From Alphaproteobacteria bacterium (lineage in GTDB: Bacteria; Myxococcota_A; UBA796; CAJQPC01): DNA of 64,000 bases. A program made the translations under genes and the position numbers. Where the stretch lies: the NCBI GenBank assembly GCA_020632795.1, contig JACKEV010000023.1, positions 5,775-69,774 of the forward strand, written 5' to 3'. Shown in pieces: positions 17,178-44,370 of the stretch; the first letter of the stretch is position 1, and each line of letters starts with the position of its first letter. A model generated the notes under the pieces. That model was not told where the DNA came from, made no database searches, and saw nothing but the letters and a program-made list of their open reading frames with translations.

Positions 17178-19607
17178 CTAAGGCTTGGGCGGGGTCAGCA
17201 CCAGGGCGCTGCGGGCGAAGCGCTCGACCTGCTCGTTGGTGTAGTAGAGGTCGTTGCGGTCGCCCCGCGCCCAGGTCCGGAGCTGGTCCTGGTAGTGGCG
17301 GCTGGCGGGCTGCCCGGAGTTGCCGGGGGGCAGCACATAGGTCGACGCGCTGAGGTCCGACAGGGGCATGATGAGCCGGAACGACGAGATGTGGTCGGTC
17401 TGCCAGCCCTCGACCCAGCTCGACCCCCCGACGGCGACGGTGTTGTCGGAGCCCGCGCCAGCCACGGTGCCCGCGTTGAGCATGGAGAGCTGGGAGACCT
17501 CAGCGGCGAAGGGGTGGTCGAACGCGACCGCGTGCACGTCACCCCACTCCCACAAGCTGGTGTCCTCGCCGTAGGTGGCCACCAGGCTGTCCCAGGTGTT
17601 GAGGAGCGCCTTGCGGATGGCCATGTCGGGGTCTTCGGTGAACCGCTCCAGCCCGCCGTCGACGTCCAGCACGGTCTGCCCGGCGGGCGCGACGGCCAGG
17701 TACATCTCGACGCCGTCCTCGCCCAGCTCGTCGGTGAGGAGCTGCCGGATGAGCTGCTCCTGGAACTCCCCCCAGATCAGGGGCGCGATGGACTCGGCGT
17801 CGGTCTGGTAGTCCCAGTCCGCCAGGGTGTCGCGCACCCACTTCGCCCCGACGCTGTTGGGGTCGGAGACGTTGATGAGGCGGGCCAGGTTGGCCTTGGC
17901 CTGGGGGTCGTGGCGGTCGAGCTGGATCTCCGCGATGGTGTCGACGGTGTGGGTCGGGGTCTCGGACAGCAGGGCCTCGATGCGGTGCTGGCGCCAGGGC
18001 AGCTCGTACTGGGCGGCCATGACCGCCCCCAGGGGGGAGGGCGCGCCGTCGATCACCGGCAGGCTGTTGGCGGACGCGATGAAGCCGGCCTCGGGGGCCT
18101 GGATCCGGACGCGCTCGGCGGCGAAGCCGGTCCAGCCCGGGGCCACCAGCTCGACCGGCGGCGGCGGGGGGGGCTCCTCCGCGGCGGGCTTCTTCTTCTT
18201 GCTGCCCTTGGGCTCCTCCTCGGGGACGGGCGCGGGCCGCGCGTCCGAGGCGATGTAGGGCACCCGGCCGGTGTGGCCCTCGCGCACGGGGTGCTGGCCG
18301 GTGATGGTCCAGCCGAAGTCGCCGGTGGTGTCGGCCAGAAGGAGGTTCAGGGAGACGATCATCGAGGTGTCGGAGAGGGGCAGGGCCTCCTCCACCGAGC
18401 CGGCGCGGGCCAGGGCGCGCAGCACGTCCGCGCTGCGGTCGACGGTCTCCATGGCATGCCAGCGCAGCACCAGCAGGTGCTTGCCATCCAGCTCGGTGAG
18501 GACCGGCCCGAGCTTCGTCCAGTTCACGGTCTCGGTGCGGCTGCCCTCGTCCTTGACCTCGACGGTGACGCTGCGGGCCTCCAGGGTCTCGTCGACCCCG
18601 TTGAGCCGGTAGCCCTGCTCGCCGACCCGCTCGACCACCGCGAGGTCCATGTAGTCGGCGCCCACGTTGGTGACGCCCCAGGCCAGGCTGTCGTTGTGCC
18701 CCGCCACCACCCCGGGCAGGCCGGGCACGGTGAAGCCGGCGGCGTGCACGCCCCCGCCCGAGACGTCCGCCACGTACCACGGGCTGGGCACCAGCAGGTG
18801 GAGGTGCACGTCGTTGGCCAGGATGGGCTTGCCGTCGGCGCTGCGCTCGGGGCCGACGACCCAGGCGTTGGAGGCCTGGGGGCTGTGGTAGATGGTGAGG
18901 GTCTCGAAGAACGCCTTGGCGGGGCCGGTCAGCTCGCCGGCCTGGGTGGTGCGCAGCCGGCCCCAGTCGGCCTCCACAGGGGTGGCCTGGGGGTGGGGGC
19001 CGAACAGGGCGTCGACGTCGGCGCGGTCCAGGCGATCGCGCAGCTGGTAGGCGACCAGCTCCTGGGGGGCGTTGGTCGAGAGGGTCAACGAGAACAGGTA
19101 GATGGACGCCATCGTGTCGAGGGGGGTCCACTCGGTCCAGCGGTCCTGCTTGAGCAGGCGGTGCTCGATGGAGAGGCCCTTGAGGCTGTCGGCGCCGGCG
19201 TTGACCCCGGCGGTGTAGGCCGCGATGACGAACCGGGTCTCCGGCTCCAGGGCCTTGAGGGACGCCTCGGCCTGCGCGCGCAGCCCCAGGCCCGCCATGA
19301 AGGTGTCCAGGTCGGCGGTCTTGGGGCCGATGTAGGCGGACAGCTCGCCGTAGGCCAGGCGCCGGGTGGCGTCGAGCTGGAAGAGGCGGTCCTGGGCGTG
19401 GGCGTAGCCCAGGGCGAAGGCGGCGTCGGCCTCGGAGGCCGCGCGGATGTGGGGCACGCCGCGCTCGTCCCGGTGGACGACGACCTCGCCGGCCAGGCCT
19501 TCGGCCTCGGCTTCGCCAGCGAGCTGGGGGAGGCTGCGGCCCTGGGTCATCAGGGTGGTGAGCGCGCAGCCGGACAGGACCAGGGACAGGAGGATGGCGG
19601 TTCTCAT
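17178..19607 (-). CDS. penicillin acylase family (Ntn-hydrolase) lipoprotein
   Basis: The track ORF is trimmed to ATG 19607 (MRTAILLSLVLSGCA). The Ntn autoprocessing site is ...SNAWVVGPERSADGKPILANDVHL. Confidence 0.85.
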   Translation of the reverse strand: MRTAILLSLVLSGCALTTLMTQGRSLPQLAGEAEAEGLAGEVVVHRDERGVPHIRAASEADAAFALGYAHAQDRLFQLDATRRLAYGELSAYIGPKTADLDTFMAGLGLRAQAEASLKALEPETRFVIAAYTAGVNAGADSLKGLSIEHRLLKQDRWTEWTPLDTMASIYLFSLTLSTNAPQELVAYQLRDRLDRADVDALFGPHPQATPVEADWGRLRTTQAGELTGPAKAFFETLTIYHSPQASNAWVVGPERSADGKPILANDVHLHLLVPSPWYVADVSGGGVHAAGFTVPGLPGVVAGHNDSLAWGVTNVGADYMDLAVVERVGEQGYRLNGVDETLEARSVTVEVKDEGSRTETVNWTKLGPVLTELDGKHLLVLRWHAMETVDRSADVLRALARAGSVEEALPLSDTSMIVSLNLLLADTTGDFGWTITGQHPVREGHTGRVPYIASDARPAPVPEEEPKGSKKKKPAAEEPPPPPPVELVAPGWTGFAAERVRIQAPEAGFIASANSLPVIDGAPSPLGAVMAAQYELPWRQHRIEALLSETPTHTVDTIAEIQLDRHDPQAKANLARLINVSDPNSVGAKWVRDTLADWDYQTDAESIAPLIWGEFQEQLIRQLLTDELGEDGVEMYLAVAPAGQTVLDVDGGLERFTEDPDMAIRKALLNTWDSLVATYGEDTSLWEWGDVHAVAFDHPFAAEVSQLSMLNAGTVAGAGSDNTVAVGGSSWVEGWQTDHISSFRLIMPLSDLSASTYVLPPGNSGQPASRHYQDQLRTWARGDRNDLYYTNEQVERFARSALVLTPPKP

Positions 19608-19684
19608 GCGCGGCAGATTAACGCGGATCGGCCCGCCCTCGCCCGTGGTCATGTAGGATCCCCCCTTGGCCCTGGAGGTCCGTC

Positions 19685-21550
19685 GTGCGTGCGCTGAAGA
19701 TCGCCCTGGATGGAGTGACGCGGGGGGTCCTGTCTGCGCTGGCCATGTGCATCTCTGAGGCCGGGGGCATGATCTTCATCTGGAACGTCTCCCGGGGGTT
19801 CCCGCTCTCGATGGAGGCCTACCGGTGGGGCAGTGCCCAGGAGGTGGTGCTGGGGGCGATCCTGGGGCTTGTGTTGTCCCCTGCCCTCTTGGCGCCGCGG
19901 GGGCGTGCGCTGCACGCGCTCGGGCTGATCGTCGTCTGGGTGGGCCTGGCTTGGGTGTTCCCGCCCGTCGAGAGCAGCATGGTCTTGAGCCTCGCCCCCG
20001 CGGTCGGCGGCAGCATGCTGTACCTGGGGGGGCTCGGGCTCGCGACGCGCTGGCCTCGAGCCTCGGTCGGGCTCGGGGCGACCACTCTGGCGCTGGTGCT
20101 GACCCTGCCCGAGTTCTTCCTGGGCGGCGCGCGCTCGGTGGAGGCCACCCGGCCCGATGCTGTGGCCGAGGGCCCCGACGTGGTGCTGGTCGTGATGGAC
20201 ACCGTCCGGGCCTCCAGCGTGTCGGCGTACGGCTACCCGGTCGAGACCACGCCCCACTTCGATCGGCTGGCGGCCGAGGGGGCCTTGTTCAAGCGGGCGG
20301 TGGCCCCGTCCACCTGGTCGCTGCCCTCGCATGCCTCCTTCTTCACCGGCCACTTCACCTCGGCGCACGGCGGCCACTCGGAGACCGGCACCCTGGACGA
20401 GGCCCTGCCCACCCTCGCCGATGTGTTCGCCGAGGCCGGCTACGAGACCGCGCTGTTCAGCGCGAACCCCCACCTCTCCGACGCCTTCGGGCTCGCCCGG
20501 GGCTACCGCTTCGAGGACCAGGCCTGGCGGGGGGACAGGACCATCGCCCATGTGTTCACGGCCCACCGGCTCCTCGCGGTGATGGGGTACGGGGAGGACG
20601 ACAAGGGCGGGGGCCGGGTCGCGGGCAACTTCGAGCGCTGGGTGGCCAGGCGCCCGGCCGACGCGCCGCCGGCCTTCGTCACCCTCAACTTCCTGGAGGC
20701 CCACGCCCCCTACGAGAAGGTCCCCGAGCCCTTCCTGTCCCGGTTCACCGACCGGCCCCACGCCGAGCTGGCGGACGTCAGCAACCTGGCGATGGCCGAC
20801 ATCTTCAACGCCAGCCTCACCCCGGAGGACGTCGAGCGGATGCGCGTGCCGATGGGTGAGATGTACCACGCCAGCGTGGCCTACACCGACCACCTGCTCT
20901 CCCGGGTCGTCGACGCCCTGCGGGCCCGGGGCTCCCTCGACGACACCGTGCTCATCGTGTTGGCGGACCACGGCGAGCTGTTGGGCGAGCACAACCGCTT
21001 CGGCCACGGCCGCCCCCTCTACGAGCCCGATCTGTGGGTCCCCCTGATGATCCGCTACCCGGCCGCGGTGCCCGCCGGGGTCGCGGTGGACCAGCCGGTG
21101 TCGACGGTGGGGGTGATGGCGACCGCGCTGGCGCTGGCCGGGCTGGACGCCCCGCCGGTGCAGGTGGGCTCGCTGCTCCCCGCGCTCCGGGGGGAGCCCG
21201 CCGGCCAGCCGCTCATCGTGGAGCGCTACCGGATGGAGCGCGGCGCCCCCACGCAGGACCCGATGTCGATGCCCGACCAGCGCTATCGGGTCTACTACAG
21301 CGGGCCCTGGAAGCTGGTGACGTGGACCGGCGGCCCGCCGATGCTCTTCGACCTCGCGGCGGACCCCACCGAGGACCACGACCTCGCCGACCAGGACCCC
21401 GCGCAGCGCGCCGCCCTTGAGGCCGAGCTGGACGGCTGGGCGACGCGCCTGGGCCTGCCGCCCCTGGACGCGGCGGCCGTGGAGGGCGAGGGCCCGAAGA
21501 TGGATGAGGAGACGCGGGATCGGCTGGAGGCGTTGGGGTACGTCGAGTGA
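19685..21550 (+). CDS. membrane-anchored sulfatase-family protein
   Basis: 621-aa ORF. Several N-terminal TM helices precede the sulfatase-fold motifs VVLVVMDTVRASS, PSTWSLPSHASFFTG, LADHGELLGEH and GHG. Confidence 0.8.
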   Translation: MRALKIALDGVTRGVLSALAMCISEAGGMIFIWNVSRGFPLSMEAYRWGSAQEVVLGAILGLVLSPALLAPRGRALHALGLIVVWVGLAWVFPPVESSMVLSLAPAVGGSMLYLGGLGLATRWPRASVGLGATTLALVLTLPEFFLGGARSVEATRPDAVAEGPDVVLVVMDTVRASSVSAYGYPVETTPHFDRLAAEGALFKRAVAPSTWSLPSHASFFTGHFTSAHGGHSETGTLDEALPTLADVFAEAGYETALFSANPHLSDAFGLARGYRFEDQAWRGDRTIAHVFTAHRLLAVMGYGEDDKGGGRVAGNFERWVARRPADAPPAFVTLNFLEAHAPYEKVPEPFLSRFTDRPHAELADVSNLAMADIFNASLTPEDVERMRVPMGEMYHASVAYTDHLLSRVVDALRARGSLDDTVLIVLADHGELLGEHNRFGHGRPLYEPDLWVPLMIRYPAAVPAGVAVDQPVSTVGVMATALALAGLDAPPVQVGSLLPALRGEPAGQPLIVERYRMERGAPTQDPMSMPDQRYRVYYSGPWKLVTWTGGPPMLFDLAADPTEDHDLADQDPAQRAALEAELDGWATRLGLPPLDAAAVEGEGPKMDEETRDRLEALGYVE

Positions 21551-21965: not shown

Positions 21966-24011
21966 GTGCGCCTGCTCACCCTCGTCCCGCCCTACCGCCA
22001 CCGCCACTGCCCCCCGGCCGGGGCCGCTGCCCTGCTCGGCCAGGCCCGGATCGATGGACACGCGGATCTCGAGCTGCTGGACCTGAGGCCGCTGACCCCT
22101 GACGTGCTGGCGCCCACCTTCAACCCCGTGGGGACGTTCGGGGAGTCCTTCGTGATGGACATCCCGGACCTGCCGCTGGCGCTGGGCGTCCTGGCGGCCT
22201 TCAGGGACGGTGGCCCGCTGGCTGAGGGTACGCCCGAGCCGCTGTTCGAGCGCTACGCCCTGGAGCGGGGCATCCACCCCCGCTGGCTGCGCGGCTGGCT
22301 GGCTGACATGGAGGCGTTCCTGGAGGACGTCTGGCGTGGCCTGCCCGCGCTGAGCCTGGTCGGGCTGTCCGTCTGGTCCTCCAACCTCACGACGAGCCTG
22401 ATGGCGGCCGCGATGCTCAAGCGCCGACCGGCGCCGCCGCTCATCGTGGCCGGCGGCCCCCAGGTCTCGGAGAGCCGGGCGTCGGCGCTGCTGGGCCTGC
22501 GGGCGGGGCTGTTCGACGCGGTCGTCGTGGGGGAAGGAGAGCGGGCCTTCTGCGAGATCCTGCGGCGCCATCGGGCCGGGGAAGCCCTGGAGGGCATCCC
22601 CGGCGTGCGCACCGCAGCGTGTCCGGCGCTGCCCGAGGCGAGCGCGCCCCTCATCAAGCTCGCCGAGGTGGCCCTCCCCGACTTCTCTCGCATGGACCTG
22701 GCCGCCTACCGCGCGCCTTCGGGCCAGCTTCGCCTGCCCTACCAGCTCTCTCGGGGGTGCACGGACCGCTGCACCTTCTGCAGCGAGTGGGTGTTCTGGC
22801 AGCGCTTCCGACCCGCCTCGGTGGAGCGGAGCCTCGTCCAGTTGGAGGTGCTGAGCGCGCGCTGGGGCGTGCGGGCCTTCCACTTCACCGACTCCCTGCT
22901 CAACGGGCACCCCAGGCAGCTGCGCGCCTTCGCCGAGGGTCTGCTGGAGCGGGATCTGCAGCTGGACTGGGGGGGCTTCATGCGGGCGCAGATGGACCCG
23001 GAGACCGCGAGGCTGCTGCGGGCGGCGGGCTGCAGCTACGCCTACATCGGCGTCGAGTCCCTCTCCGATGAGACCCTGGCAGCCATGAACAAGCGCCGCA
23101 CCCGGGCTCAGAACCTGGAGGCCATCGACGCGCTGCTGGAGGCGGGGATCGCCGTCTCGGTGGGGGTGATCCCCGGCTTCCCTGGCGACACCCGGGCGCG
23201 GTTCCTGGCGACGGCCCGGGAGCTGGCCGCCCTGGCCGAGGCCTGGCCGGGCCGGTTCAGCTTCAACGTGGAGCCCTTCGTGGTCTCGCCGGCCCAGCCC
23301 CTGGCCCGGGACCTCGACGCGGTGGGCCTGCGCCCGGTGCCCTGGCCTCCCGAGATCCTGGACATCACGCCGGAGCTCGCCGACCTCCTGGAGGGCGTGG
23401 CCTGCGCCGTGGAGGGCGCCAACCAGGGCGCCGAGCGCGCCGGACAGCTCCAGGTGCTGGAGGTGCTCACCGACGCGACGCGAGGCGCGGCCGCCTCCCA
23501 CCGCCCGGAGGACCTGCCCGAGGATCGGGCTCGCTTCCTCAGCGCCGGGTCCCTGCGCCTTGCGCTGGTCAAGCAGCGGGGTCGCCTGGTCGGCGCGCTG
23601 CTCCGCCCCGAGGAGGAGGCGCGGCTTCGAGCGCTGGTGCAGGAGGGTCGCCCGGGCGCCCCGCTGGGTCAGCATCCCGGCTTCGCGTCGACCTGGAGGG
23701 TCCTGCTGGAGCAGCAGGCCTGGCGTCCCGGGCGTCGGGCCTGGCCCGCGCGGCAGGTCGAGCGCGTGGAGGACCGCCACCGCTTGTGGGTGCCTGACCA
23801 CGTCGTCGGCCGGGTCGAGCGCGGGCGGCTCGTGCTCGCCCACCTGCTGAATGGCCGCAGCGCGTCGCTCCCCGCCGCGCTCGCCACGCCGCTGGCTGCG
23901 CTGTCCGAGGCGGCCGGGGCGGCGCCGGCCCTGCGCGGCTGGCTGCCCCAGAGGGAGCTGGACGACCTCCACCGCCAGGGCTTCCTGCAGGTGCTGCCCC
24001 CCAGCGCTTGA
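21966..24011 (+). CDS. B12-binding-domain radical SAM protein
   Basis: 681-aa ORF (GTG start). It has a CX3CX2C motif (CTDRCTFC) after an N-terminal Rossmann-like region. It is convergent with the GNAT gene, 3 nt apart. Confidence 0.8.
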   Translation: MRLLTLVPPYRHRHCPPAGAAALLGQARIDGHADLELLDLRPLTPDVLAPTFNPVGTFGESFVMDIPDLPLALGVLAAFRDGGPLAEGTPEPLFERYALERGIHPRWLRGWLADMEAFLEDVWRGLPALSLVGLSVWSSNLTTSLMAAAMLKRRPAPPLIVAGGPQVSESRASALLGLRAGLFDAVVVGEGERAFCEILRRHRAGEALEGIPGVRTAACPALPEASAPLIKLAEVALPDFSRMDLAAYRAPSGQLRLPYQLSRGCTDRCTFCSEWVFWQRFRPASVERSLVQLEVLSARWGVRAFHFTDSLLNGHPRQLRAFAEGLLERDLQLDWGGFMRAQMDPETARLLRAAGCSYAYIGVESLSDETLAAMNKRRTRAQNLEAIDALLEAGIAVSVGVIPGFPGDTRARFLATARELAALAEAWPGRFSFNVEPFVVSPAQPLARDLDAVGLRPVPWPPEILDITPELADLLEGVACAVEGANQGAERAGQLQVLEVLTDATRGAAASHRPEDLPEDRARFLSAGSLRLALVKQRGRLVGALLRPEEEARLRALVQEGRPGAPLGQHPGFASTWRVLLEQQAWRPGRRAWPARQVERVEDRHRLWVPDHVVGRVERGRLVLAHLLNGRSASLPAALATPLAALSEAAGAAPALRGWLPQRELDDLHRQGFLQVLPPSA

Positions 24012-24014
24012 GGT

Positions 24015-24932
24015 TCAGCGTCGGCCCGCCAGCGCAGCCCGCACCGCGACCCAGGGGGCCCGGTAGCGGTACGTCCGGGCGACGAGGGTGAAGCCGAGGC
24101 GCGCGTAGAGGCGGCGGGCCCCGGCGTTCACGCTGCTGACCTGGAGACGGGCGGCGTGTCCCCGGTCCAGGATCTGCCGCAGCACCGCGTCTCCCAGCGC
24201 TTGCCCCACCCCCTTGCCCTGCGCGGCGGGGTCCACGACGATGCTCTCGATCCACGTCGCGCCGCGGTCGGCCTCCAGGTGGGCGTAGCCGACCAGCGCG
24301 CCGTCCAGCCGAGCCACCCACAGCTCGGCGTCCACGAGCAGCTCGGCCATGCCGGGCGCGGTGAAGGGGACGAAGGAGATGTCCTCGGCGTAGGCCAGGT
24401 TGTGGAGCGCAGCGACCGCGTCGGCCACGGCGGACGGCTCAGCCACAGGCTCGACGCGGAGGCCCTCCACGACCCTCGATCGCCGGGCGGGGGCCTCCTC
24501 GCATCGCATCTCCAGCTCCTCCTCCACCACCGCGAAGCCCAACGCCTCCACGAAGCGGCGACCGGTCGCCCACGCCTCGGGGCAGAGGGTCTGCAGGGTG
24601 ACCGCCTCGAGCGCCTGGTCCAGCTCGGTGATCGCCCACAGGAGCCGACCGCCGACGCCCTCCCGGCGGCGGGTGAGGTCGACCAGGACGCGAAAGTGAC
24701 GCAGCGGGGTCCCCTCCGGGCTGCGCAGGGAGGAGGTCGCCAGGCCGATCAGGCGGCCGTCCTCCTCGGCCACGCGGAACCCGACGCCTCCTTGGTTGAC
24801 CTCAAACCCCAGGAAGCGCTCCCACGCGGCGGCGCTGAGCGGTCCGCCGGTGCCGTCGGCGGCCAGGCGGTCGTAGAGGTCGACCACCGCGGGGGTGTCC
24901 TCGGCGCGGAGGGCGCGGATCAATACAGCCAC
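24015..24932 (-). CDS. two-domain GNAT N-acetyltransferase
   Basis: The track ORF is trimmed to GTG 24932 (TTG 24923 also possible). Two GNAT cores are present, including the acetyl-CoA loop VDPAAQGKGVGQALGDAVL and an earlier RRREGVGGRLL. Confidence 0.7.
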   Translation of the reverse strand: MAVLIRALRAEDTPAVVDLYDRLAADGTGGPLSAAAWERFLGFEVNQGGVGFRVAEEDGRLIGLATSSLRSPEGTPLRHFRVLVDLTRRREGVGGRLLWAITELDQALEAVTLQTLCPEAWATGRRFVEALGFAVVEEELEMRCEEAPARRSRVVEGLRVEPVAEPSAVADAVAALHNLAYAEDISFVPFTAPGMAELLVDAELWVARLDGALVGYAHLEADRGATWIESIVVDPAAQGKGVGQALGDAVLRQILDRGHAARLQVSSVNAGARRLYARLGFTLVARTYRYRAPWVAVRAALAGRR

Positions 24933-25675
24933 TGCACGACTCCCTGCCGCGAGCGGCGACGGTTCGGTGTGATCGAGTGGTAGGCCGGGCCGCGCTGGAA
25001 GTCGAGCAGCACCAGGCGATTCGCCTGGGGCACGACCTGGGCGAGCAGGCGCGCGCGAGCGGGCCGCACCCCCACGGGCGCGGCCACCTCGACCTCCAGC
25101 GTGGTGGCTTCCTCCAGGAAGCCCAGCGGCCGGCCGACGAAGGCATCCCACCGGAGCAGGCCGGCGGGCGCGGGGTCGAGCGTCTCCACCTCCCAGAGCT
25201 GGAGGAGCCCCCCGTCCGCCGCCCGCCAGTCCGGGGTGAGGTAGAGCAGCGCCGCGGCGGACTTGCAGGCCTCCGGATCCCGGTCGGTGTGCGGCCAGAA
25301 ACCCAGCGAATCCGGGGGATGACGCCGGGCCTTCACCACCGTGCGCCCGGGCTGGCGCAGCGTGATGTCCAGGGCCCGAGCCACCCAGTCGTGCCAGGCC
25401 GGGGACGTCCAGAGCTCGTGGCCCGGTGACGCCGGGTCGCCGTCCAGGCGCATGGCCAGCGCGTCGTAGTTGAGGTCGGGGGAGTCGGGGACCAGGGGCA
25501 GGGTCGCCCAGGCCGCCTGCAGCGCCTCCAGCGCCTCGGGCCGCAGCAGGTCGTCCACCACCAGGTAGCGCTCGAAGGGGCGGGCGCGGGCCTGCTCCTG
25601 AAGAGCCCGGGGATCGAGCAACTCGGGCCGCAGCCAGGCCTGGAGCACATCAGCGCTCGGCCCCGCGGACCTCAT
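24920..25675 (-). CDS. 2OG-Fe(II) oxygenase-like protein (paralog 2)
   Basis: The track ORF is trimmed to ATG 25675 (ATGA overlap with the upstream stop). Candidate facial triad is WPHTD ... AYHSI, with a downstream Arg. It is clearly paralogous to 25672..26391. Confidence 0.6.
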   Translation of the reverse strand: MRSAGPSADVLQAWLRPELLDPRALQEQARARPFERYLVVDDLLRPEALEALQAAWATLPLVPDSPDLNYDALAMRLDGDPASPGHELWTSPAWHDWVARALDITLRQPGRTVVKARRHPPDSLGFWPHTDRDPEACKSAAALLYLTPDWRAADGGLLQLWEVETLDPAPAGLLRWDAFVGRPLGFLEEATTLEVEVAAPVGVRPARARLLAQVVPQANRLVLLDFQRGPAYHSITPNRRRSRQGVVQWLY

Positions 25676-26391
25676 GCCACCCACTGCAGCACCGCGCGGC
25701 GCGCCCGGCCGTGGCTCGGGGTCACCGAGTGGACCGCCTGCTGCGGGTGGAGGCCGATGAGCACCGCCCGGTTGCGCTCCGGGACGACCTGATCGAGCAG
25801 GCGCAGGCGCGTGACCGGCAGGTTCCAGGGCCCCCCCAGCTCCAGCACCAGCTCCCGGCGCTCCTCCAGGAAGCCGAGGTGCTCGCGCTCGCGGTCCGCC
25901 CAGCGCATGGGCTCGTCCCCGGGGCGGGTGGGGAGCGCCTGCCAACGCTGGAGGAGCCCCCCGTCCGCCGCCCGCCAGCCCGGGTCGAGGTAGAGCAGCA
26001 CGGCCAGGCGACGGGGGATGCCGGGCAGATCGTCGACGTGGGGCCAGAAGCCGCGCGCGTCGGGCGGGTGGATCCGAGCGGCGACGGTGAGGGCGCAGAC
26101 CTCAGGCTCCGGCTCGTCCAGCGCGCGGTGCAGCCAACGCATCCAGGCGGGGGCGTAGAACAGCTCGGCCAGCGCGTCGTCCGGGGCCACCCGGCTGGAG
26201 GTGGAGTCGTAGGGCAGACCCTCGTTGTCGGGCGCGAAGCGGCGCCGGGCGAAGTCCGCGTCGATGCGCGCGAGGGCCTCCTCTCGCAGGAGCCCGTCCA
26301 CGACCAGCCAGCGGCCGTGGGCGCAGGCTCGGGCGTCCTCGGCCAGGCGCGAGGGGTCCAGCCAACGTGGGGACAGCCAGCGCTCCAGCAC
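25672..26391 (-). CDS. 2OG-Fe(II) oxygenase-like protein (paralog 1)
   Basis: 239-aa ORF. It has WPHVD ... AVHSV ... R plus LLYLDPGWRAADGGLLQRW, matching LLYLTPDWRAADGGLLQLW in the paralog. Confidence 0.6.
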   Translation of the reverse strand: MLERWLSPRWLDPSRLAEDARACAHGRWLVVDGLLREEALARIDADFARRRFAPDNEGLPYDSTSSRVAPDDALAELFYAPAWMRWLHRALDEPEPEVCALTVAARIHPPDARGFWPHVDDLPGIPRRLAVLLYLDPGWRAADGGLLQRWQALPTRPGDEPMRWADREREHLGFLEERRELVLELGGPWNLPVTRLRLLDQVVPERNRAVLIGLHPQQAVHSVTPSHGRARRAVLQWVA

Positions 26392-26393
26392 CG

Positions 26394-27347
26394 TCAGATC
26401 CCAAGCGGCGGCCGCTGATCGGGGCCGTCGGCGTCCATGTCGTCCCAGTAGTCCTCCAGGGCGAGCTGGTAGGCGTAGAGGTCAGCGCTCACCGTGGGCT
26501 GGTCGGGGTCCAGCAGCGCCTGAAGGCGGCGGGCGTTGCGCCCCGCGCGGCTGCCCTCCGCCCGCGCCGCGCTGTGGGCGATCGCCTCGCGGAGCAGCGC
26601 GTCGCCGCGCAGCAGATCCAGGGCGTACCGGTTGCCGTCGAGGCTTCGGCGCAGCCAGCTCGGGGGACGCTCTCCCTTGAGGATGACGACGCTGTAGGGG
26701 AAGGACACATGCAGCAGGGGGCGGAGCCCGGCGCCGTGGAAGAAGCGGCTGGCCGCCCGCGCCGGGCCCTGGGCGTGGTGGAAGAAGTCGTCCAGGATGA
26801 GCAGCCCCCCCTCGACCAGCCTCGGCCAGAGGGCCTCCAGGCACTGCAGCACCGAGCGGTACAGGTCGGCGTCCACATGCACCAGCGCCAACGGTCCCTT
26901 GGGGAGGGTGGACAGGGTGCGCTCGAAGAAGCCAGGGACCGGCCGCACCACCGCGTCGAGGCCCTGCTCCGCCAGCAAGGCCCGGAAGCGCTCGAGCAGC
27001 GCCTCCCGGCCCGGTCGGGTCCGGTAGTCGCCTTCGCGGAAGTAGGGGTTGTCGACGGCGTCATCCGGCGGGGGGAGGCCTTCGAAGCTGTCCAGGGCGT
27101 ACACCCGTCGACCCGCCGCGCGGGCGAAGTCCCCGAAGAAGACGCTGGTGCCGCCCCGCCCCACGCCGCACTCCACGAGGTCTCCCTCCAACTGTGGCAG
27201 GCGCTCGGCGAGGAGGTGGCCGTACGCCCAGTGCCCCCAGGGCCAGGGCGGCTTGAGGCAGTGGCGCTCCAGCGCGACGATGCGAGCGCCCAGCGGCCCG
27301 GCGTCCGCGAACCAGCGGGCGTCGAACAGGTCGAAGGGGAAGCTCAT
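26394..27347 (-). CDS. TylF/MycF-type class I SAM-dependent methyltransferase
   Basis: 317-aa ORF. Motifs are GDLVECGVGRGGTSVFF, YALDSFEGLP and VHVDADLYRSVLQCLEALWPRLVEGGLLILDDF. Confidence 0.8.
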   Translation of the reverse strand: MSFPFDLFDARWFADAGPLGARIVALERHCLKPPWPWGHWAYGHLLAERLPQLEGDLVECGVGRGGTSVFFGDFARAAGRRVYALDSFEGLPPPDDAVDNPYFREGDYRTRPGREALLERFRALLAEQGLDAVVRPVPGFFERTLSTLPKGPLALVHVDADLYRSVLQCLEALWPRLVEGGLLILDDFFHHAQGPARAASRFFHGAGLRPLLHVSFPYSVVILKGERPPSWLRRSLDGNRYALDLLRGDALLREAIAHSAARAEGSRAGRNARRLQALLDPDQPTVSADLYAYQLALEDYWDDMDADGPDQRPPLGI

Positions 27348-28207
27348 CCGGCCCCCTCGAGCTGGCGCTGCAGGGCCGCGAGCAGGCGGACGAGCCCGAA
27401 GACCACCACCTGACCGCTGCGGAGGGTGATCGGGTCCAGGTCCACGTCGTACTCAGTCCAGTCGGCCCCGACCAGGGGGAGGTCCAGGCGCCGTACGGTC
27501 TCCAGCACCCGGTCGAGGTCTCCCAGGGTCAGGCCCTCGGGCAGAGGGTGACGCACCGCAGGCAGCACGCTGGGGTCGAAGGCGTCGCTGTCCACGGTCA
27601 GGTAGACGGGCACGCCCGGCGCCAGGGCCTCGGCCAACCCCGCCACCGTGCTGCGCACCACCCCTGGCGTGGGCTCGGGGCGCAGGCTGCTGTAGCCCCG
27701 CACGCCCACCTGCACCACGCGCTCCACCTCGGGGCAGCGGGCCAGGAAGGAGACGAAGTTGGAGTGGGTGGGCAGGCTGTCGGGCCGCAGCGGCGCCAGG
27801 TCGTGGTGGGCGTCGAGCTGCAGCACCTGCAGGCCACCGATCGCCCGGGCCACCCCGCGGGCCAGGGGCAGGGAGACCGCATGGTCCCCCCCCAGCCCCA
27901 GCACCACCTTGCCCTGGCGGGCCAACGTCACCGCCGTGGCCTCCACCAGATCGAAGAAGTCCCGGTGTGGCCAGCTCGCCCGATGCACCAGGTCCCCGAG
28001 GTCGCTCAGCCGCAGGGAGGAGAGGACCAGCGCGTCCGTGGCGTAGTCGAGGATGCCCTCAGAGAGGCGCTCGCTGGCGGTCAGCCCCCGCAGGGTCGAG
28101 GGGGCGTGCAGGACGCCGCCGCCCCGGGCCGCGCCGTGGGCGAAGGCCACCCCCAGCGCCACCACCTGGCCCTCGTCCCCGGAGGGGGCCCCGAAGAGCG
28201 TGCTCAT
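27344..28207 (-). CDS. arginase/agmatinase/formiminoglutamase-family (ureohydrolase) protein
   Basis: 287-aa ORF. Mn-ligand motifs are GGDHAVSLP, LQLDAHHDL and LTVDSDAFDPSVLPAV. ATGA overlaps occur at both ends. Confidence 0.8.
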   Translation of the reverse strand: MSTLFGAPSGDEGQVVALGVAFAHGAARGGGVLHAPSTLRGLTASERLSEGILDYATDALVLSSLRLSDLGDLVHRASWPHRDFFDLVEATAVTLARQGKVVLGLGGDHAVSLPLARGVARAIGGLQVLQLDAHHDLAPLRPDSLPTHSNFVSFLARCPEVERVVQVGVRGYSSLRPEPTPGVVRSTVAGLAEALAPGVPVYLTVDSDAFDPSVLPAVRHPLPEGLTLGDLDRVLETVRRLDLPLVGADWTEYDVDLDPITLRSGQVVVFGLVRLLAALQRQLEGAG

Positions 28208-28878
28208 GGCTCCAGCCCATCCAGGTCGAGCAGCCCCTCCGCCAGCAGGCGTTCGCGGGCGTCCGGGCGGCGGTCGGTGAAGACCTCCCTGTCGCGGGTG
28301 AGCCCTCGGCAGGGGCTCGGGTGCCCGGGGCGCACGGACCAGAAGAAGCCGCTCTGCAGCGCGTCCCAGGCCGGGTCGAGGGCCGTGACCTTGCGCTGGT
28401 CCAGGCAGGCGGCGAAGTCCAGGTAGAGGTCGTCTCGCAGCCCCTCGTCCGCGCCCGGTCGCCGCAGGCCGAAGGCATCCCGGGCCCAGAAGAAGAAGCG
28501 GCTGTAGCCCTCGTAGGCCCGCCCCACCCCCACCGGGTCGGGCAAGGAGAAGCGCGGTTCGAAGAAGGCGTCCGAGGAGAGGAACGCGGACAGCCAGCGC
28601 TGGCCCAGGGCCTCGCGGGCGTCCCGGGCCCCCAGGTGCCGCAGGGTCGCGGCGAAGACCATCTCCAGATCCTGGGCGGCCAGCAGCCGCCGACCATGCA
28701 TCTCCGCGCGGTGGCCCTCCGAGAGAGGGTCGGGCAGGCAGGCGGACCAGTGTGACGGTACCCGCCAGAGGGCGAGGACCGCCTCGGGGTCCTCCGCGAA
28801 GGCCTGGGCGGTGCGCTCGCAGTAGAGCAGCTTGAGGTGCAGCCGCTGCACCCGCACCAGCTCCAGGGAGCCGCTCAC
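28204..28878 (-). CDS. hypothetical protein, positional equivalent of the MbnC/TglI/DUF2063-type partner of DUF692 enzymes
   Basis: The track ORF 28204..29043 is trimmed to GTG 28878, which overlaps the DUF692 stop (GTGA). I could not recognise the family from sequence. The call rests on position and coupling only. Confidence 0.45.
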   Translation of the reverse strand: MSGSLELVRVQRLHLKLLYCERTAQAFAEDPEAVLALWRVPSHWSACLPDPLSEGHRAEMHGRRLLAAQDLEMVFAATLRHLGARDAREALGQRWLSAFLSSDAFFEPRFSLPDPVGVGRAYEGYSRFFFWARDAFGLRRPGADEGLRDDLYLDFAACLDQRKVTALDPAWDALQSGFFWSVRPGHPSPCRGLTRDREVFTDRRPDARERLLAEGLLDLDGLEP

Positions 28879-29684
28879 GACACCACGCGGCGGAGCTGCT
28901 CCAGGGTGCGGACGAGGTCCGTCTCCGGCGCGGCGTCCGAGTGCTCGAAGGTCACCGCCCGGAGCGCGGGCAGCTCCCGCACCAGGGTGGCGGTCAGCGT
29001 CAGGATCTCCTCCTCCGGGACCCGGTCGTGGCTGTCGTGCCACCAGCGTCCGCTCTGCCCGGCCCGGATGCCGGCGACGTGAAGCTCCACGATCCGCTCG
29101 GCGGGCAGGGCGTCCAGGCCGAAGTCGGCGGCTCGACCGAGGTTCCGGTTCGACGCCGTCCAGTGGGCGACGTCGAGGATGATCAGCGTGTCTCCGGCCT
29201 CAGCGACCCGGGCGAGGAAGCGCAGCTCGCTGTCCAGCGCTCCGACGTGCTGGTAGACCGGGGCCAGCTCCAGGGCGACCGGGCGACCGTAGAAGGCCTG
29301 CAGGGCGCGGGCGTTTCGGGCGGCCACCTCCACGAAGGCTTCGCAGAGGATCGGCGTCACGATGTAGCCCAGCCGGCCCTCCGCCCCGGGCCCGGCCCAG
29401 CAGAGGTGCTCGCCCACCCAGGGGCTGTCCCAGGCGTCCGCAGCCTCGCGCACCTGCTCGGCCAGGCGCAGGTTGACCCCCTGGGGGCTGGCGATGGGGT
29501 TGATGGGGCAGTGTACGAGCACGGGCACGCCCTCCCCCACCCGGGGAGGGTGCCCCGGGGTGATGGGGAAGTTCGCCTCGACGTAGTCGATGAGCCCCGC
29601 CGTGGCCGCCCGGGCCAGACGCTCATCCTGGTTGGGGTAGTCCCAGCGGGCGCCGAGGGTCGGGCGCCCGGTCGGCAAGCTCAC
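28875..29684 (-). CDS. DUF692 (UPF0276; MbnB/TglH/ChrH-like) TIM-barrel non-haem iron enzyme
   Basis: 269-aa ORF (GTG start). DUF692 landmarks are IDYVEANF, VLVHCP, SPWVGEHLCW, VALELAPVY, LILDVAHW and IVELHVAG. Confidence 0.8.
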   Translation of the reverse strand: MSLPTGRPTLGARWDYPNQDERLARAATAGLIDYVEANFPITPGHPPRVGEGVPVLVHCPINPIASPQGVNLRLAEQVREAADAWDSPWVGEHLCWAGPGAEGRLGYIVTPILCEAFVEVAARNARALQAFYGRPVALELAPVYQHVGALDSELRFLARVAEAGDTLIILDVAHWTASNRNLGRAADFGLDALPAERIVELHVAGIRAGQSGRWWHDSHDRVPEEEILTLTATLVRELPALRAVTFEHSDAAPETDLVRTLEQLRRVVS

Positions 29685-30040
29685 GCGCCGTCCCGATCCG
29701 GGCCGGAGTCCTCGTCGTCGGCGGCCTCCACCGCGCGGGGCCCGACGTCTTCACGGGGCCGCAGAGCAGCGACCGCGCGGGGCCCGACGTCCTCACGGGG
29801 CCGCAGGGCAGCGACCGCGCGGGGCCCGACGTCCTCACGGGGCCGCAGAGCCTCCACCGCGCGGGGCCCGACGTCCTCACGGGGGCGCAGAGCCTCCACC
29901 GCGCGGGGCCCGACGTCCTCACGGGGGCGCAGGGCCTCCACCACGCGGGGCCCGACGTCCTCACGGGGGCGCAGGGCCTCCACCGTGCGAGGACCCACAT
30001 CCCGACCCTTCTTCCGGCCGCCATCACCGCTGGAACTCAT
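29681..30040 (-). CDS. 119-aa cysteine-free repeat peptide (about 7 x 14 aa, consensus REDVGPRAVEALRP); candidate RiPP precursor
   Basis: ATG 30040 lies 5 nt after a perfect AGGAGG. The TGA overlaps the GTG of the DUF692 gene (GTGA). The repeat unit is 42 bp (3n). Within the repeat, GC by codon position follows the pattern expected for real coding frames in GC-rich genomes (pos1 high, pos2 lowest, pos3 high). An in-frame ATG at 30067 is an alternative start. Confidence 0.6.
   Translation of the reverse strand: MSSSGDGGRKKGRDVGPRTVEALRPREDVGPRVVEALRPREDVGPRAVEALRPREDVGPRAVEALRPREDVGPRAVAALRPREDVGPRAVAALRPREDVGPRAVEAADDEDSGPDRDGA
29726..30019. repeat. tandem 42-bp repeat: 6 near-perfect copies plus 1 degenerate copy
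   Basis: Units begin at 29726, 29768, 29810, 29852, 29894, 29936 and 29978 (degenerate). The plus-strand consensus is ctccaccgcgcggggcccgacgtcctcacggggScgcagRgc. Confidence 0.95.
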
Positions 30041-30045
30041 GGACA

Positions 30046-30051
30046 CCTCCT
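30046..30051 (-). promoter_or_regulatory. Shine-Dalgarno (AGGAGG) for the repeat-peptide ORF
   Basis: The plus strand reads cctcct at 30046..30051. A 5-nt spacer separates it from ATG 30040. Confidence 0.6.
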
Positions 30052-30096
30052 GGCGGGATGCTACCATCCTCTCCGGTATGGTTCGGGGCTCCGTGC

Positions 30097-31137
30097 ATGC
30101 GCCAGATCATCCGGAGGGATACCCCCAACGTCGCACGGAGCCCGATCCAACACAGCCGACTGCGGGCTGAGGTGTTCAGGATATCGGTGAAGTCACGCCG
30201 CTCCATCGCCGTCGTCGCCCTGCTCGTCCTCGCCGCCGTCAACGCGGTGGCGTACGCCCACGCCCGCGCCATGCTGACCTGGGCCCCCGACGGCGCGCGC
30301 ACCCCGCCCCCCGAGCAGCTCTCCACCGCCGGGCGCCTGCGCACCCTGCTGCTCGGCGTGCGCATCCCCCGCCCCCGCCCCACCCGCACGCCGGACACGC
30401 TGGGTCTGCCCTTCGAGGCCCACACCCTGACCCCCCCGGGCGAGCCCGCCCTGTCCCTGTGGGAGGTCCCCGTCGAGGACCCCCGGGGCACGGTGGTCCT
30501 CATCCACGGCTACACCGCCGCGAAGGACCAGCTCCTGGAGCTGGCGCCGCCCCTACGGGAGATGGGCTGGCGGGTGGTGCTCGTCGACCTGCGGGGCTCC
30601 GGGGACAGCGGCGGCACCGGCACCACCATCGGGGTCACCGAGGCGCGGGACGTCGCGGCGGTCGCGGCCTGGGCCCCGCGGCCGGTGGTGCTCTATGGCT
30701 TCTCGATGGGCGCCGCCGCCGCCCTGCGCGCGGTCGCCGCCGAGGGCGCCACCCCGGACGGCCTCATCCTGGAGGCGGTCTTCGACCGGCTGCGCACCAC
30801 CGTGGGCAACCGCTTCCGCTCGATGGGCCTGCCCGCCCGCCCCGGCGCCGATCTGCTTTTGTTCTGGGGCGGCATCATCTCGGGCTTCGACCCCGCCGGA
30901 CACGCCCCCGTGAGCTACGCCACCCGGGTGCGCGCGCCGACGCTGGTGCTGCACGGGACCGAGGACCCCCGCGCCCACCTGGCCGAGGGCCGGGCGGTGT
31001 ACGACGCGCTGGCAGGCCCGTCCCGCTGGGTGGCGTTCGAAGGCCTGGGGCACGAGCTCTCCGCGGTCGCCCAGCCCGCGCGGTGGGGGGGCGCGGTGGG
31101 GGCCTTCCTGGAGGCGCGGGCGCCGCAGGGCCAATAA
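30097..31137 (+). CDS. membrane-anchored alpha/beta-hydrolase (serine hydrolase)
   Basis: The track ORF 30058..31137 has its start uncertain (ATG 30097 or GTG 30187). An N-terminal TM helix is IAVVALLVLAAVNAVAYA. Other features are HGYTAAKD, the nucleophile elbow GFSMGAA and a C-terminal GLGHE. It is divergent from the repeat-peptide operon. Confidence 0.7.
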   Translation: MRQIIRRDTPNVARSPIQHSRLRAEVFRISVKSRRSIAVVALLVLAAVNAVAYAHARAMLTWAPDGARTPPPEQLSTAGRLRTLLLGVRIPRPRPTRTPDTLGLPFEAHTLTPPGEPALSLWEVPVEDPRGTVVLIHGYTAAKDQLLELAPPLREMGWRVVLVDLRGSGDSGGTGTTIGVTEARDVAAVAAWAPRPVVLYGFSMGAAAALRAVAAEGATPDGLILEAVFDRLRTTVGNRFRSMGLPARPGADLLLFWGGIISGFDPAGHAPVSYATRVRAPTLVLHGTEDPRAHLAEGRAVYDALAGPSRWVAFEGLGHELSAVAQPARWGGAVGAFLEARAPQGQ

Positions 31138-36899: not shown

Positions 36900-37075
36900 C
36901 GTCGGGAGGGCGTCGGCGCTGGTGCTCGGTGCTGGTGCTCGGTGGACGCTCGACGCGCGGGACGTCGGCGGGCGGGCGTCGGCGCTGGTGCTCGGTGGGC
37001 GCTCGGGACGTCGGCGGCGGGCGGGCGTCGGCGCTGGTGCTCGGTGGACGCTCGACGCTCGGAACGGCGTCGTCA
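36900..37075. repeat. degenerate tandem repeats in a long intergenic spacer
   Basis: The core gggcgtcggcgctggtgctcggtg recurs at 36908, 36974 and 37023. gggacgtcggcgg..gggcggg and ctcggtggacgctcgacgc each occur twice. Confidence 0.8.
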
Positions 37076-37299
37076 CCCGAAGCACCGCCCCTGCGCCCTG
37101 GACGGCTCCGTGGGGCTCCACCCGGGGACCGTTCGTCGGTCCCCGTCCGGGGGACCTCCTCTCTCGTCTTCGCATCGGCCTTCGTTCGTCCGAGAACTCC
37201 CGGCCTCGCTCAGGCGTCCCCGGATGGAGCCCCACTGCGCCTGCGGGCTTCGGGGCTGTTCGCGACCTCGGAGCGTAGTCCCCGGAGGCTCCTGGCGCG

Positions 37300-37480
37300 A
37301 GGCGGCGGAGGTGGCAACGGTGGCAACGGCGGCACAGGGGGAGGCGGGCGGCACGGGCGGGGCAGGTGGCGCTGGTGGCACGGGCGGCACGGGCGGGAGG
37401 CGGCACGGGCGGCACGGGCGGGGCGGGCGGCACAGGCGGCACGGGCGGGGCGGACGGCACGGGCAGCGCAGGCGACGCTC
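37300..37480. repeat. GGC-rich short-period repeat (ggcacgggc / ggcggcacg units)
   Basis: About 15 iterations of 9-nt-like units, with occasional 1-nt slips that break every reading frame. Confidence 0.75.
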
Positions 37481-43469: not shown

Positions 43470-43835
43470 TCACGGAACGTCGACCAATCTCGGATCCACC
43501 AGATCGGACATGGCGACGCCCTGGGACTTGATGAAGTCCTCGGCCTCCTCGGCCGTGCGAAACCGAAAGACGTCGAGTCGACGATAGTCGTCACCAATCT
43601 CATAGATCCCCGACTCGTGGACCTCGCGGTCGAGTTCGATGATGTGGACGCAATACGGAGTGGTCAGATTGCTGGCCTCGTACTTGTATGCGCTGTGTTC
43701 GGGACAGTCGTGCAGCACTTCCAGGATTCGCATGTTTGGAATGAGTTTCTCTGCGATCAACCAGCCGAGGTACTTCTTGGAGTTGGTGGGGATTCGGATG
43801 GCCCCGCCCCAGTCGGAGAGGAATCGACGTCGCAT
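43470..43835 (-). CDS. family-A immunity-like protein, copy 1 (121 aa)
   Basis: MRRRFLSDWGGAIRIPTNSKKYLGWLIAEKL... It is collinear with the copies at 43914..44279 and 47651..48016. Confidence 0.7.
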   Translation of the reverse strand: MRRRFLSDWGGAIRIPTNSKKYLGWLIAEKLIPNMRILEVLHDCPEHSAYKYEASNLTTPYCVHIIELDREVHESGIYEIGDDYRRLDVFRFRTAEEAEDFIKSQGVAMSDLVDPRLVDVP

Positions 43836-43913
43836 GTCTGGAGCTCCATCGAGAGGGTTGAATGGGTCGGTCCAATTCTTCCAGGATGTTCATACCCGCT
43901 GTGGGTCGAGGGA

Positions 43914-44279
43914 CTACGGAACGTCGACCACTCTGGGATCGACCAGATCGGACATGGCGACGCCCTGGGCCGTGATGAAGTCCTCGGCCTCCTCGGCCGT
44001 ACGAAACCGAAAGACGTCGAGTCGGCGATAGTCGTCACCGGTTTCATAGACCCCCGACTCGTGGACCTCGCGGTCGAGTTCGATGATGCGGACGCGATAC
44101 GGGGTGGTCAGTTTGCTGGTCTCAGCTTTGTAGGCGCGATGCTCGGGGCAGTCGTGCAGTACTTCCAGGGTTCGCATGTTTGGAACCAGTTTCTCTGCGA
44201 TCAGCCAGCCGAGGTACTTCTCGGAGTTGGTGGGGATTCGGATGGCCCCGCCCCAGTCGGAGAGGAATCGACGTCGCAT
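43914..44279 (-). CDS. family-A immunity-like protein, copy 2 (121 aa)
   Basis: The track ORF is trimmed to ATG 44279, giving the same 121-aa length and the same 5' leader as copy 1. Confidence 0.7.
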   Translation of the reverse strand: MRRRFLSDWGGAIRIPTNSEKYLGWLIAEKLVPNMRTLEVLHDCPEHRAYKAETSKLTTPYRVRIIELDREVHESGVYETGDDYRRLDVFRFRTAEEAEDFITAQGVAMSDLVDPRVVDVP

Positions 44280-44370
44280 CTCTGAAGCTCCATCGAGAGG
44301 GTTGAAGGGTGCTGTCCAATTGGACGTGCGGCAGGTGGTCGCGAAGGTGGGTCGTCTCCCTGTGGCCCGA

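Follow-up and report, generated by a model that had tools for sequence, protein, structure and literature searches.

A cysteine-free repeat gene beside a DUF692 enzyme gene as the probable multi-core precursor of a rare peptide pathway

The gene at positions 29681–30040 (minus strand) of a 64,000-nucleotide stretch of contig JACKEV010000023.1 (assembly GCA_020632795.1; hereafter the window) very probably encodes the multi-core precursor of a rare pathway for a peptide made on the ribosome and modified post-translationally (RiPP), dependent on an oxidative enzyme that relies on multinuclear non-heme iron (MNIO; DUF692). The predicted 119-residue product is built of tandem units, each carrying one R-P-R-E-D-V-G-(G/P) core. 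Its gene heads an eight-gene, tightly packed minus-strand run in which start and stop codons mostly overlap: precursor, MNIO, partner protein, arginase-family enzyme, TylF-like methyltransferase, two prolyl-4-hydroxylase-like 2-oxoglutarate (2OG)-dependent oxygenases and a double GNAT acetyltransferase. Below we set out the repeat gene and its relatives, the evidence on its reading frame, the enzymes of the cluster, and the chemistry that they may perform.

Results

Minus-strand translation of 29681–30040 gives MSSSGDGGRKKG, a degenerate first unit of 13 residues (RDVGPRTVEALRP), five REDVGPR(A/V)V(E/A)ALRP units and REDVGPRAVEAADDEDSGPDRDGA; put differently, MSSSGDGGRKKG is followed by seven units with (L)RPREDVGP cores, the final one merging into the acidic tail AADDEDSGPDRDGA. 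A preliminary description of this DNA had quoted the same Cys-free peptide, which our translation reproduces exactly, and what it stated of the open reading frame (ORF), the repeat, the ribosome-binding site and the gene overlap all holds, with the gene on the minus strand. Its count of about seven 14-residue units is borne out by the array, with the qualification that unit 1 is degenerate and one residue shorter. Tandem Repeats Finder (TRF) places the array at 29724–29989, with a period of 42 bp, 6.3 copies, 93% matches, a score of 427 and no indels, in keeping with the preserved frame reported earlier. The 21-nt core CGTGAGGACGTCGGGCCCCGC occurs six times (at most one mismatch) at a spacing of exactly 42 nt, and found zero matches in 100 dinucleotide-preserving shuffles. 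Each 14-residue unit comprises one core and then a semi-conserved spacer, R-x-x-(E/D/A)-x-L. The phase in which the unit had been written, REDVGPR..ALRP, proved arbitrary: across relatives the conserved block is (L/M)RPREDVG(G/P), followed by a variable spacer of 4–6 residues.

The translation signals fit a short gene coupled to its neighbor. On direct reading, 5 nt separate the upstream Shine-Dalgarno sequence AGGAGG (30046–30051, minus strand) from the ATG at 30040, and the TGA stop (29683–29681) overlaps the GTG start of the MNIO gene (29684), both as previously described. Starting instead at the in-frame ATG 30067 would lengthen the peptide by nine residues, but that codon lacks a properly spaced ribosome-binding site. 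Since the frame meets a stop 22 codons upstream of ATG 30040, no choice of start gives a long N-terminal region. The predicted peptide has a hydrophilic N-terminus and contains no Cys, Phe, Tyr, Trp or His. The gene call draws on this translation, on protein-level homologues (P0001–P0005) and precursors at related loci, and on a comparison of frames; together they show a predicted start at ATG 30040 and reading in the REDVGPR frame.

A protein search returned five metagenomic peptides (P0001–P0005) in which LRPREDVG(G/P) blocks recur, with variable spacers of 4–6 residues between them. Through these peptides and relatives of the MNIO and its partner, 15 further precursor genes were traced (16 with the window's). 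They lie on metagenomic contigs L001, L002, L004, L124, L125, L147, L148, L166, L169 and L171, in a Myxococcota metagenome-assembled genome (MAG; L017), in Archangium violaceum Cb vi76 (L122) and in Bradyrhizobium (L167); the remaining two, P0002 and P0003, are known as proteins alone. The motif R-P-R-E-D-V-G-(G/P) is kept at the protein level though the DNA has diverged. The two low-GC relatives (0.31–0.37; L147:240–387 and L148:296–458) carry one core apiece, with the endings ERERKDVGH and FRDRRDVGH, beside MNIOs of 38–40% identity, and the family invariant is therefore R-x-R-x-D-V-G. The leader motif of these two, L-x-E-K-L-x-x-L-G-I, resembles the L125-type leader LEAALLAAGI.

Synteny matches the motif. 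An RxRxDVG precursor lies directly upstream of the MNIO gene in every locus that has an MNIO at least 57% identical to the window's and retains upstream sequence (window, L001, L002, L004, L124, L125, L017, L122, L166, L167, L169 and L171, with the duplicates L168 (= L167) and L170 (= L169) excluded), and the window thereby shares its precursor–MNIO–partner arrangement with 11 other loci. Family MNIOs are 57–73% identical to that of the window, the nearest relative reaching 73%, and occur in at least Myxococcota, Alphaproteobacteria and unassigned metagenomic lineages of 59–72% GC. Core copy number ranges from 1 to 12–13. Precursors end in G, H, R, PS or extended tails, and many stop exactly after ...REDVGG. 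N-terminal regions are unrelated between lineages: MILNFHGPTTVNIY... in some, (V)DIKRLEAALLAAGIPV... in others, Lys/Ala-rich in Myxococcota, and different again in L169 and L171. The shortness of the N-terminus noted at the outset is real in the window, where a leader is almost nil, but it is a peculiarity of this lineage, as relatives carry leaders of 25–80 residues.

Such genes are easily missed. The Bradyrhizobium precursor, an unannotated ORF of 12–13 tandem RPREDVGPRAPIE units, has a JmjC gene on one side and the MNIO gene on the other (L167:9271–9900, GCA_054823685.1). Among 1.84 billion representative proteins, 3 of 59 phmmer matches were true precursor relatives, the other 56 being unrelated low-complexity repeat proteins. 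In a DNA scan of a genome collection with a degenerate two-unit pattern, only L017 and L122 were real among the matches listed; the others were mostly chance matches in GC-rich genomes. Contigs in two Logan assemblies (L162 and L163; SRR12358676 and SRR15882951) encode an MNIO protein identical to that of the window and break off part-way through the 42-bp repeat, so that the precursor gene is lost from short-read assemblies. The window peptide itself is absent as a called protein from a collection of 5.8 billion proteins.

Two loci have mobile-element genes at their flanks. The cluster at L001:1–8964 adjoins the Tn7-like transposition genes TniQ and TniB, and the L167 cluster, which apparently lacks an intact TylF gene, is bordered by IS110, MULE and IS21 transposase genes. 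These flanks fit a horizontal spread of the cluster.

The repeat can be read in a second frame. As described earlier, the +1 frame (29623–30027) is open in the window and reads WRPCAPVRTSGPAR-like units with one Cys each; were it translated, the product would be a classical MNIO Cys substrate, Cys being the residue that many MNIOs modify. GC contents at codon positions 1, 2 and 3 are 0.59, 0.83 and 0.93 in this frame and 0.93, 0.59 and 0.82 in the REDVGPR frame; the high third-position value would suit the Cys frame, and as base composition by codon position is an ambiguous test of frame, it was not relied on. We compared ten loci (window, L001, L002, L004, L124, L125, L017, L122, L147 and L148). 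None of the ten has a stop in the REDVGPR frame, whereas stops interrupt the Cys frame in five (L001, L002, L122, L147 and L148), and the Cys frame has no conserved peptide sequence across the compared loci. In Bradyrhizobium (L167) the +1 frame is open, yet its Cys count is zero. In the window it has no ribosome-binding site and extends 61 nt into the MNIO gene.

Substitution patterns point the same way. Within the seven codons of R-x-R-x-D-V-G, differences among the ten loci number 281, 79 and 1524 at codon positions 1, 2 and 3, a third-position bias that matches the REDVGPR frame and not the Cys frame. Across the family, units are spaced by 12, 13, 14 or 15 residues, in whole codons without exception. 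Sites that vary between units of the window are mainly synonymous in the REDVGPR frame (GCC/GCT, CGC/CGG, GTG/GTC, GAG/GAA), with V/A and E/A the only replacements; the same changes scramble the Cys-frame peptide. Judged from these patterns, the RxRxDVG motif is under purifying selection across phyla, and comparison with relatives settles the predicted frame as REDVGPR, not Cys. We put the chance that the Cys frame is the translated one close to nil.

The preliminary description had favored the same frame, and rightly so, although its three arguments (second codon positions almost all G/C, no ribosome-binding site, overrun into the DUF692 gene) are themselves weak to moderate; what upholds its choice is the motif kept in 15 relatives, the third-position bias and the stops in the Cys frame. 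It had also proposed comparing repeat number and sequence in relatives, which revealed the variable copy number and a synonymous-biased variation in the REDVGPR frame. Neither of the observations that it named as contrary, indels not divisible by three or substitutions favoring another frame, turned up. On the plus strand, a 409-residue ORF (28941–30170) covers the precursor gene together with some of the MNIO gene; as it runs opposite the conserved MNIO gene, it was rejected as a high-GC antisense artefact.

The same evidence bears on whether the repeat is a functional gene at all, rather than tandem DNA with no coding role, a by-product of assembly or the leaderless remains of a decayed precursor. 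Such readings would agree with the missing protein call, with the assemblies that break within the repeat, and with the loss of the leader found in the closest relatives. The ORF is nevertheless intact, with a strong ribosome-binding site and a stop codon that overlaps the next start; its motif is under purifying selection across phyla; and all downstream enzyme genes are intact with their catalytic motifs. Leaders are not conserved across the family as a whole, so loss of a leader need not inactivate the gene. We consider a non-functional repeat very improbable, and retain a translated precursor as our reading of 29681–30040.

A sister family separates the parts of the core. In Polyangiaceae MAGs (L164:9007–12089, L165:8974–12083 and L127:770–2504), only the MNIO (~53% identity) and the partner (36–46%) are shared with the window. 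The precursors there have an LDVDQLENVSGG-type leader and Arg-free cores, GGGDWGGGDDWGGGGDW (GGGDWGGGDDW repeats), and the gene order is precursor, MNIO, partner, a 279-residue protein without a Pfam match and a single GNAT. Arginase, methyltransferase and 2OG oxygenase genes are absent from these three loci. Both families have D-(V/W)-G-G in common, and it is there, at the Asp or within the segment, that the MNIO most likely acts. D-(V/W)-G-G tracks with the MNIO and its partner, and R-P-R-E with the arginase, oxygenases and methyltransferase. Marine relatives of the MNIO–partner pair (L128–L143, 47–53% identity) were considered as a third substrate type and set aside, there being no DxGG-type precursor nearby. 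One such pair (L139:9893–11480) adjoins apparent housekeeping genes on the opposite strand; L128, L132, L135 and L140 likewise hold marine pairs (47–52% identical, L139 included) without a recognizable precursor nearby.

The MNIO gene (28875–29684, minus strand; 269 residues) matches PF05114 (MbnB/TglH/ChrH) with an E-value of 8.5e-29. Its best NCBIfam match is the ApyH model NF050151, at 115.4 bits against a cutoff of 400 bits, and it scores 75 bits against the BufB model, whose cutoff is 310 bits. Across phyla the enzyme is 62–70% identical, and many His, Asp and Glu columns are invariant in the alignment. The partner gene (28204–28878, minus strand; 224 residues) overlaps the MNIO stop at GTGA, and it always follows the MNIO. 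It has no Pfam match even at E-values up to 10, a PDB profile search returned nothing meaningful, and only 14 relatives were found in 5.8 billion proteins. Its confident AlphaFold2 model (predicted local distance difference test, pLDDT, 93.3) has MbnC, the methanobactin MNIO partner (7dz9_C) as top Foldseek match, with an E-value of 0.23, a probability of 0.85 and TM-scores of 0.40/0.47; this weak likeness of predicted fold is consistent with an MNIO-partner role and is not proof of it.

Next in the run stands an arginase-family, agmatinase-like ureohydrolase gene (27344–28207, minus strand; 287 residues; PF00491, E 1.4e-37) with intact binuclear Mn motifs GGDHA, DAHHD and DSDAFDP, followed by a TylF-family S-adenosylmethionine (SAM) methyltransferase gene (26394–27347, minus strand; 317 residues; PF05711, E 5.5e-28) whose PDB matches are the O-methyltransferases 5i10/4cdz, NovP and MycF. 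At L169:5609–7453 and L170:6363–8207 the arginase and methyltransferase domains are fused into one 614-residue product, which suggests that the two enzymes share an intermediate or catalyze coupled steps. Oxygenase a (25672–26391, minus strand; 239 residues; PF13640/PF13661), a prolyl-4-hydroxylase-like 2OG-Fe(II) enzyme, has an HVD...H triad and a 57% identical ortholog in L125. Its paralogue, oxygenase b (24920–25675, minus strand; ~251 residues; called by Pfam and start refinement), has an HTD...H triad and an ATG at 25675 that overlaps the oxygenase a stop. The double-GNAT gene (24015–24932, minus strand; ~305 residues; Pfam, with an MshD-like two-domain NCBIfam match) starts, after start refinement, at GTG 24932 and overlaps oxygenase b by 13 nt, as its counterpart does in L125.

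Convergent with the end of this operon is a gene for a B12-binding radical SAM enzyme (21966–24011, plus strand; 681 residues; Pfam), whose NCBIfam matches, the RiPP radical SAM C-methyltransferase model TIGR03975 (111 bits) and ApyD (70 bits), both fall below cutoff. We count it in the cluster because L125 has a counterpart in the matching position, 58% identical over the full length, and because such a gene also adjoins the clusters of L166, L169/L170 and L171. On the other side, a divergent membrane-anchored alpha/beta hydrolase gene (30187–31137, plus strand; Hydrolase_4/Abhydrolase_1) was considered as a conserved maturation protease and rejected: the neighboring hydrolases in the window, L122, L166 and L164/L165 are not orthologous, so its membership of the cluster stays doubtful. 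The gene set of the window recurs in all longer related loci, with a JmjC/cupin hydroxylase added in L001, L017, L125, L166, L167 and L171; a JmjC hydroxylase was looked for in the window and is absent there. No asparagine-synthetase-like gene was found among the cluster genes scanned with Pfam.

Elsewhere in the window, a penicillin-amidase family gene (17178–19652, minus strand; E 2.8e-163) and one for a sulfatase (19685–21550, plus strand), next to the radical SAM gene on the side away from the operon, have no counterparts near the cluster in other loci. A 444-bp tandem duplication occupies 43472–44321 (1.9 copies, 91% matches, TRF score 1446), and GC-rich short-period repeats (9, 27, 36 and 49 bp) fall within long ORFs without a Pfam match at 36926–37474. 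The window holds no match to rRNA, tRNA or other Rfam families.

In the pathway we propose, the MNIO–partner pair would recognize the repeat unit itself and work iteratively along the array. The unit is the only element common to all precursors, and since leaders are unrelated between lineages and almost nil in the window, the unit itself is probably what is recognized. The MNIO would most likely oxidize the invariant Asp or the D-V-G-G segment, for which Asp modification by PesHI and ApyHI offers published precedents, and the arginase-family enzyme would convert one or both invariant Arg residues to ornithine. Its co-occurrence with Arg-containing cores and its absence from the Arg-free sister family would fit an action on peptidyl-Arg. 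The 2OG oxygenases, with the JmjC enzyme where present, may place hydroxyl groups on Pro or on other side chains, methyl groups may come from the TylF-like and B12-radical SAM enzymes, and the GNAT may acetylate an amine. Peptidases would then release up to 6–7 copies of a short, heavily modified peptide.

Several observations weigh against this scheme. The MNIO lies far below the ApyH cutoff, so ApyH chemistry is not transferable to it, and the Asp of the unit is internal, unlike that of ApyA. Sequence searches detected no recognizable RiPP recognition element or DUF2063 signature in the partner, and its sole fold match is weak. The arginase is closest to agmatinases (PDB 1wog, E 1.8e-19), not to a known peptide arginase. 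The window precursor lacks the leader of its closest, L125-type, relatives and could be a decaying copy, although all its enzyme genes are intact. The conserved genes of the cluster include neither a protease nor an exporter, and the release of separate units is in that light an assumption.

This last point would suit a different fate for the same gene product, in which the peptide is read in the same frame, stays uncut and serves as one multiply modified repeat polypeptide, for example in metal binding or storage. Whole-protein MNIO substrates with many repeated motifs have been described (Buf_EGKCG/oxazolin; PMC12452194), and beta-hydroxy-Asp and ornithine derivatives, both possible products here, would be typical metal ligands. 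Such a polypeptide would differ from the oxazolin and bufferin precursors in lacking a signal peptide, however, and the spread of copy number from 1 to 12–13, the many precursors that end right after ...REDVGG and the single-core relatives L147 and L148 all suit a product the size of a unit. We think an uncut polypeptide rather unlikely and prefer release of the modified units.

A bolder form of the release scheme is also unlikely in our estimate, if slightly less so than the uncut polypeptide. Here the precursors would form a leader-independent, iterative multi-core family in which an ApyH-related MNIO and 6–7 tailoring metallo- or SAM enzymes install ornithine-derived, beta-hydroxy-Asp, hydroxy-Pro, methyl and acetyl groups on every R-P-R-E-D-V-G-(G/P) unit, so that each translation would yield as many as 13 copies of a short, ribosomally made peptide resembling a siderophore or metallophore. 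At D-V-G-G the MNIO might then perform a new internal-Asp chemistry, or even cut the backbone and free the units; scission by the MNIO would explain the absence of a conserved protease.

Discussion

The preliminary description had considered a multi-core precursor so short at its N-terminus, and with so acidic a C-terminal tail, unusual for DUF692 systems. A Cys-free multi-core precursor for the DUF692 enzyme is supported here; Cys-free MNIO substrates as such are already known and no longer unusual. Published targets reportedly include Asp (ApyHI and PesHI), Asn (MovX), Phe (PbsCD) and homocitrulline (StdDE). The predicted system behaves as an MNIO-type RiPP pathway and falls outside the Apy, Pbs, Pes and bufferin/oxazolin/methanobactin classes.

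ApyHI turns a C-terminal Asp into aminopyruvic acid (PMC11117315). That pathway resembles ours in that ApyH is the best model for the window MNIO, in its separate partner, B12-radical SAM enzyme and SAM methyltransferase, and in the modification of an Asp, the residue that is invariant in our cores. The differences are considerable: the match reaches 115 of 400 bits, no precursor in our family ends in Asp, the conserved Cys motif (CBX2-3G) and the P450 of Apy are absent, and our clusters have multiple cores together with an arginase, 2OG oxygenases and a GNAT. In the nitrilobacillin pathway, PesHI beta-hydroxylates an internal Asp within an R(V/T)DN motif, and a 2OG enzyme hydroxylates an adjacent Pro, an arginase taking the place of this enzyme in some clusters (PMC13060819). 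The internal-Asp MNIO with a partner and the set of Pro, Arg and Asp residues recall our system; by its description, Pes is set apart by the single core of PesA with its C-terminal R(V/T)DN motif, by a nitrile synthetase resembling asparagine synthetase and by a further MNIO-like protein, all of them absent here.

The biphenomycin-like Pbs pathway contains PbsE, a peptide arginase that converts Arg to ornithine in an MNIO cluster (PMC12257519), and shares with ours an MNIO, a partner, an arginase, a hydroxylase (a cupin in Pbs) and a B12-radical SAM enzyme. Its core, by contrast, is aromatic (FHAFRF), with ortho-Tyr and a biaryl crosslink, whereas our cores have no aromatic residue and the window peptide contains no FHAFRF, FHTFMF or YHxYxY motif. 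PbsE is moreover a TPR-containing arginase, and Pbs has no methyltransferase, GNAT or repeats. The Buf_EGKCG/oxazolin precursors (PMC12452194) match ours in repeating a short motif many times in tandem, which implies that they are processed iteratively, but their chemistry is Cys-based (oxazolone/thioamide), they have Sec signal peptides and DUF2063 partners, and their units stay uncleaved. The window system lacks the core Cys, the signal peptide and the DUF2063 partner of the bufferin, oxazolin and methanobactin classes.

Several cores per gene, short recognition or spacer sequences and strain-variable copy number are features of cyanobactins, microviridins, thiovarsolins and fungal dikaritins. 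These classes rely on other maturation enzymes and on dedicated proteases or recognition sequences, and we know of no MNIO in any of them. In the papers searched, neither the motif nor this combination of enzymes was found. What is new is the repeat-built, leader-variable RPREDVG(G/P) precursor family, its sister GGDW-repeat family and the particular combination of enzymes.

Peptide chemistry without precedent is at present coming from MNIOs, and to our knowledge every newly characterized MNIO subfamily has so far yielded a new reaction. A Cys-free repetitive substrate is almost never annotated by gene callers, as the unannotated Bradyrhizobium copy and the assemblies that break in the repeat illustrate, and the tailoring set that accompanies this one is unusually rich. 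The interest of the finding lies chiefly in natural-product enzymology; for genome biology at large it is ordinary. Comparison across the two families yields an argument for which residues each enzyme touches, and the chemistry is directly testable in cultured carriers of the cluster, Archangium violaceum Cb vi76 and Bradyrhizobium. With unrelated leaders and conserved cores, the family offers a clean system for leaderless substrate recognition by an MNIO–partner pair.

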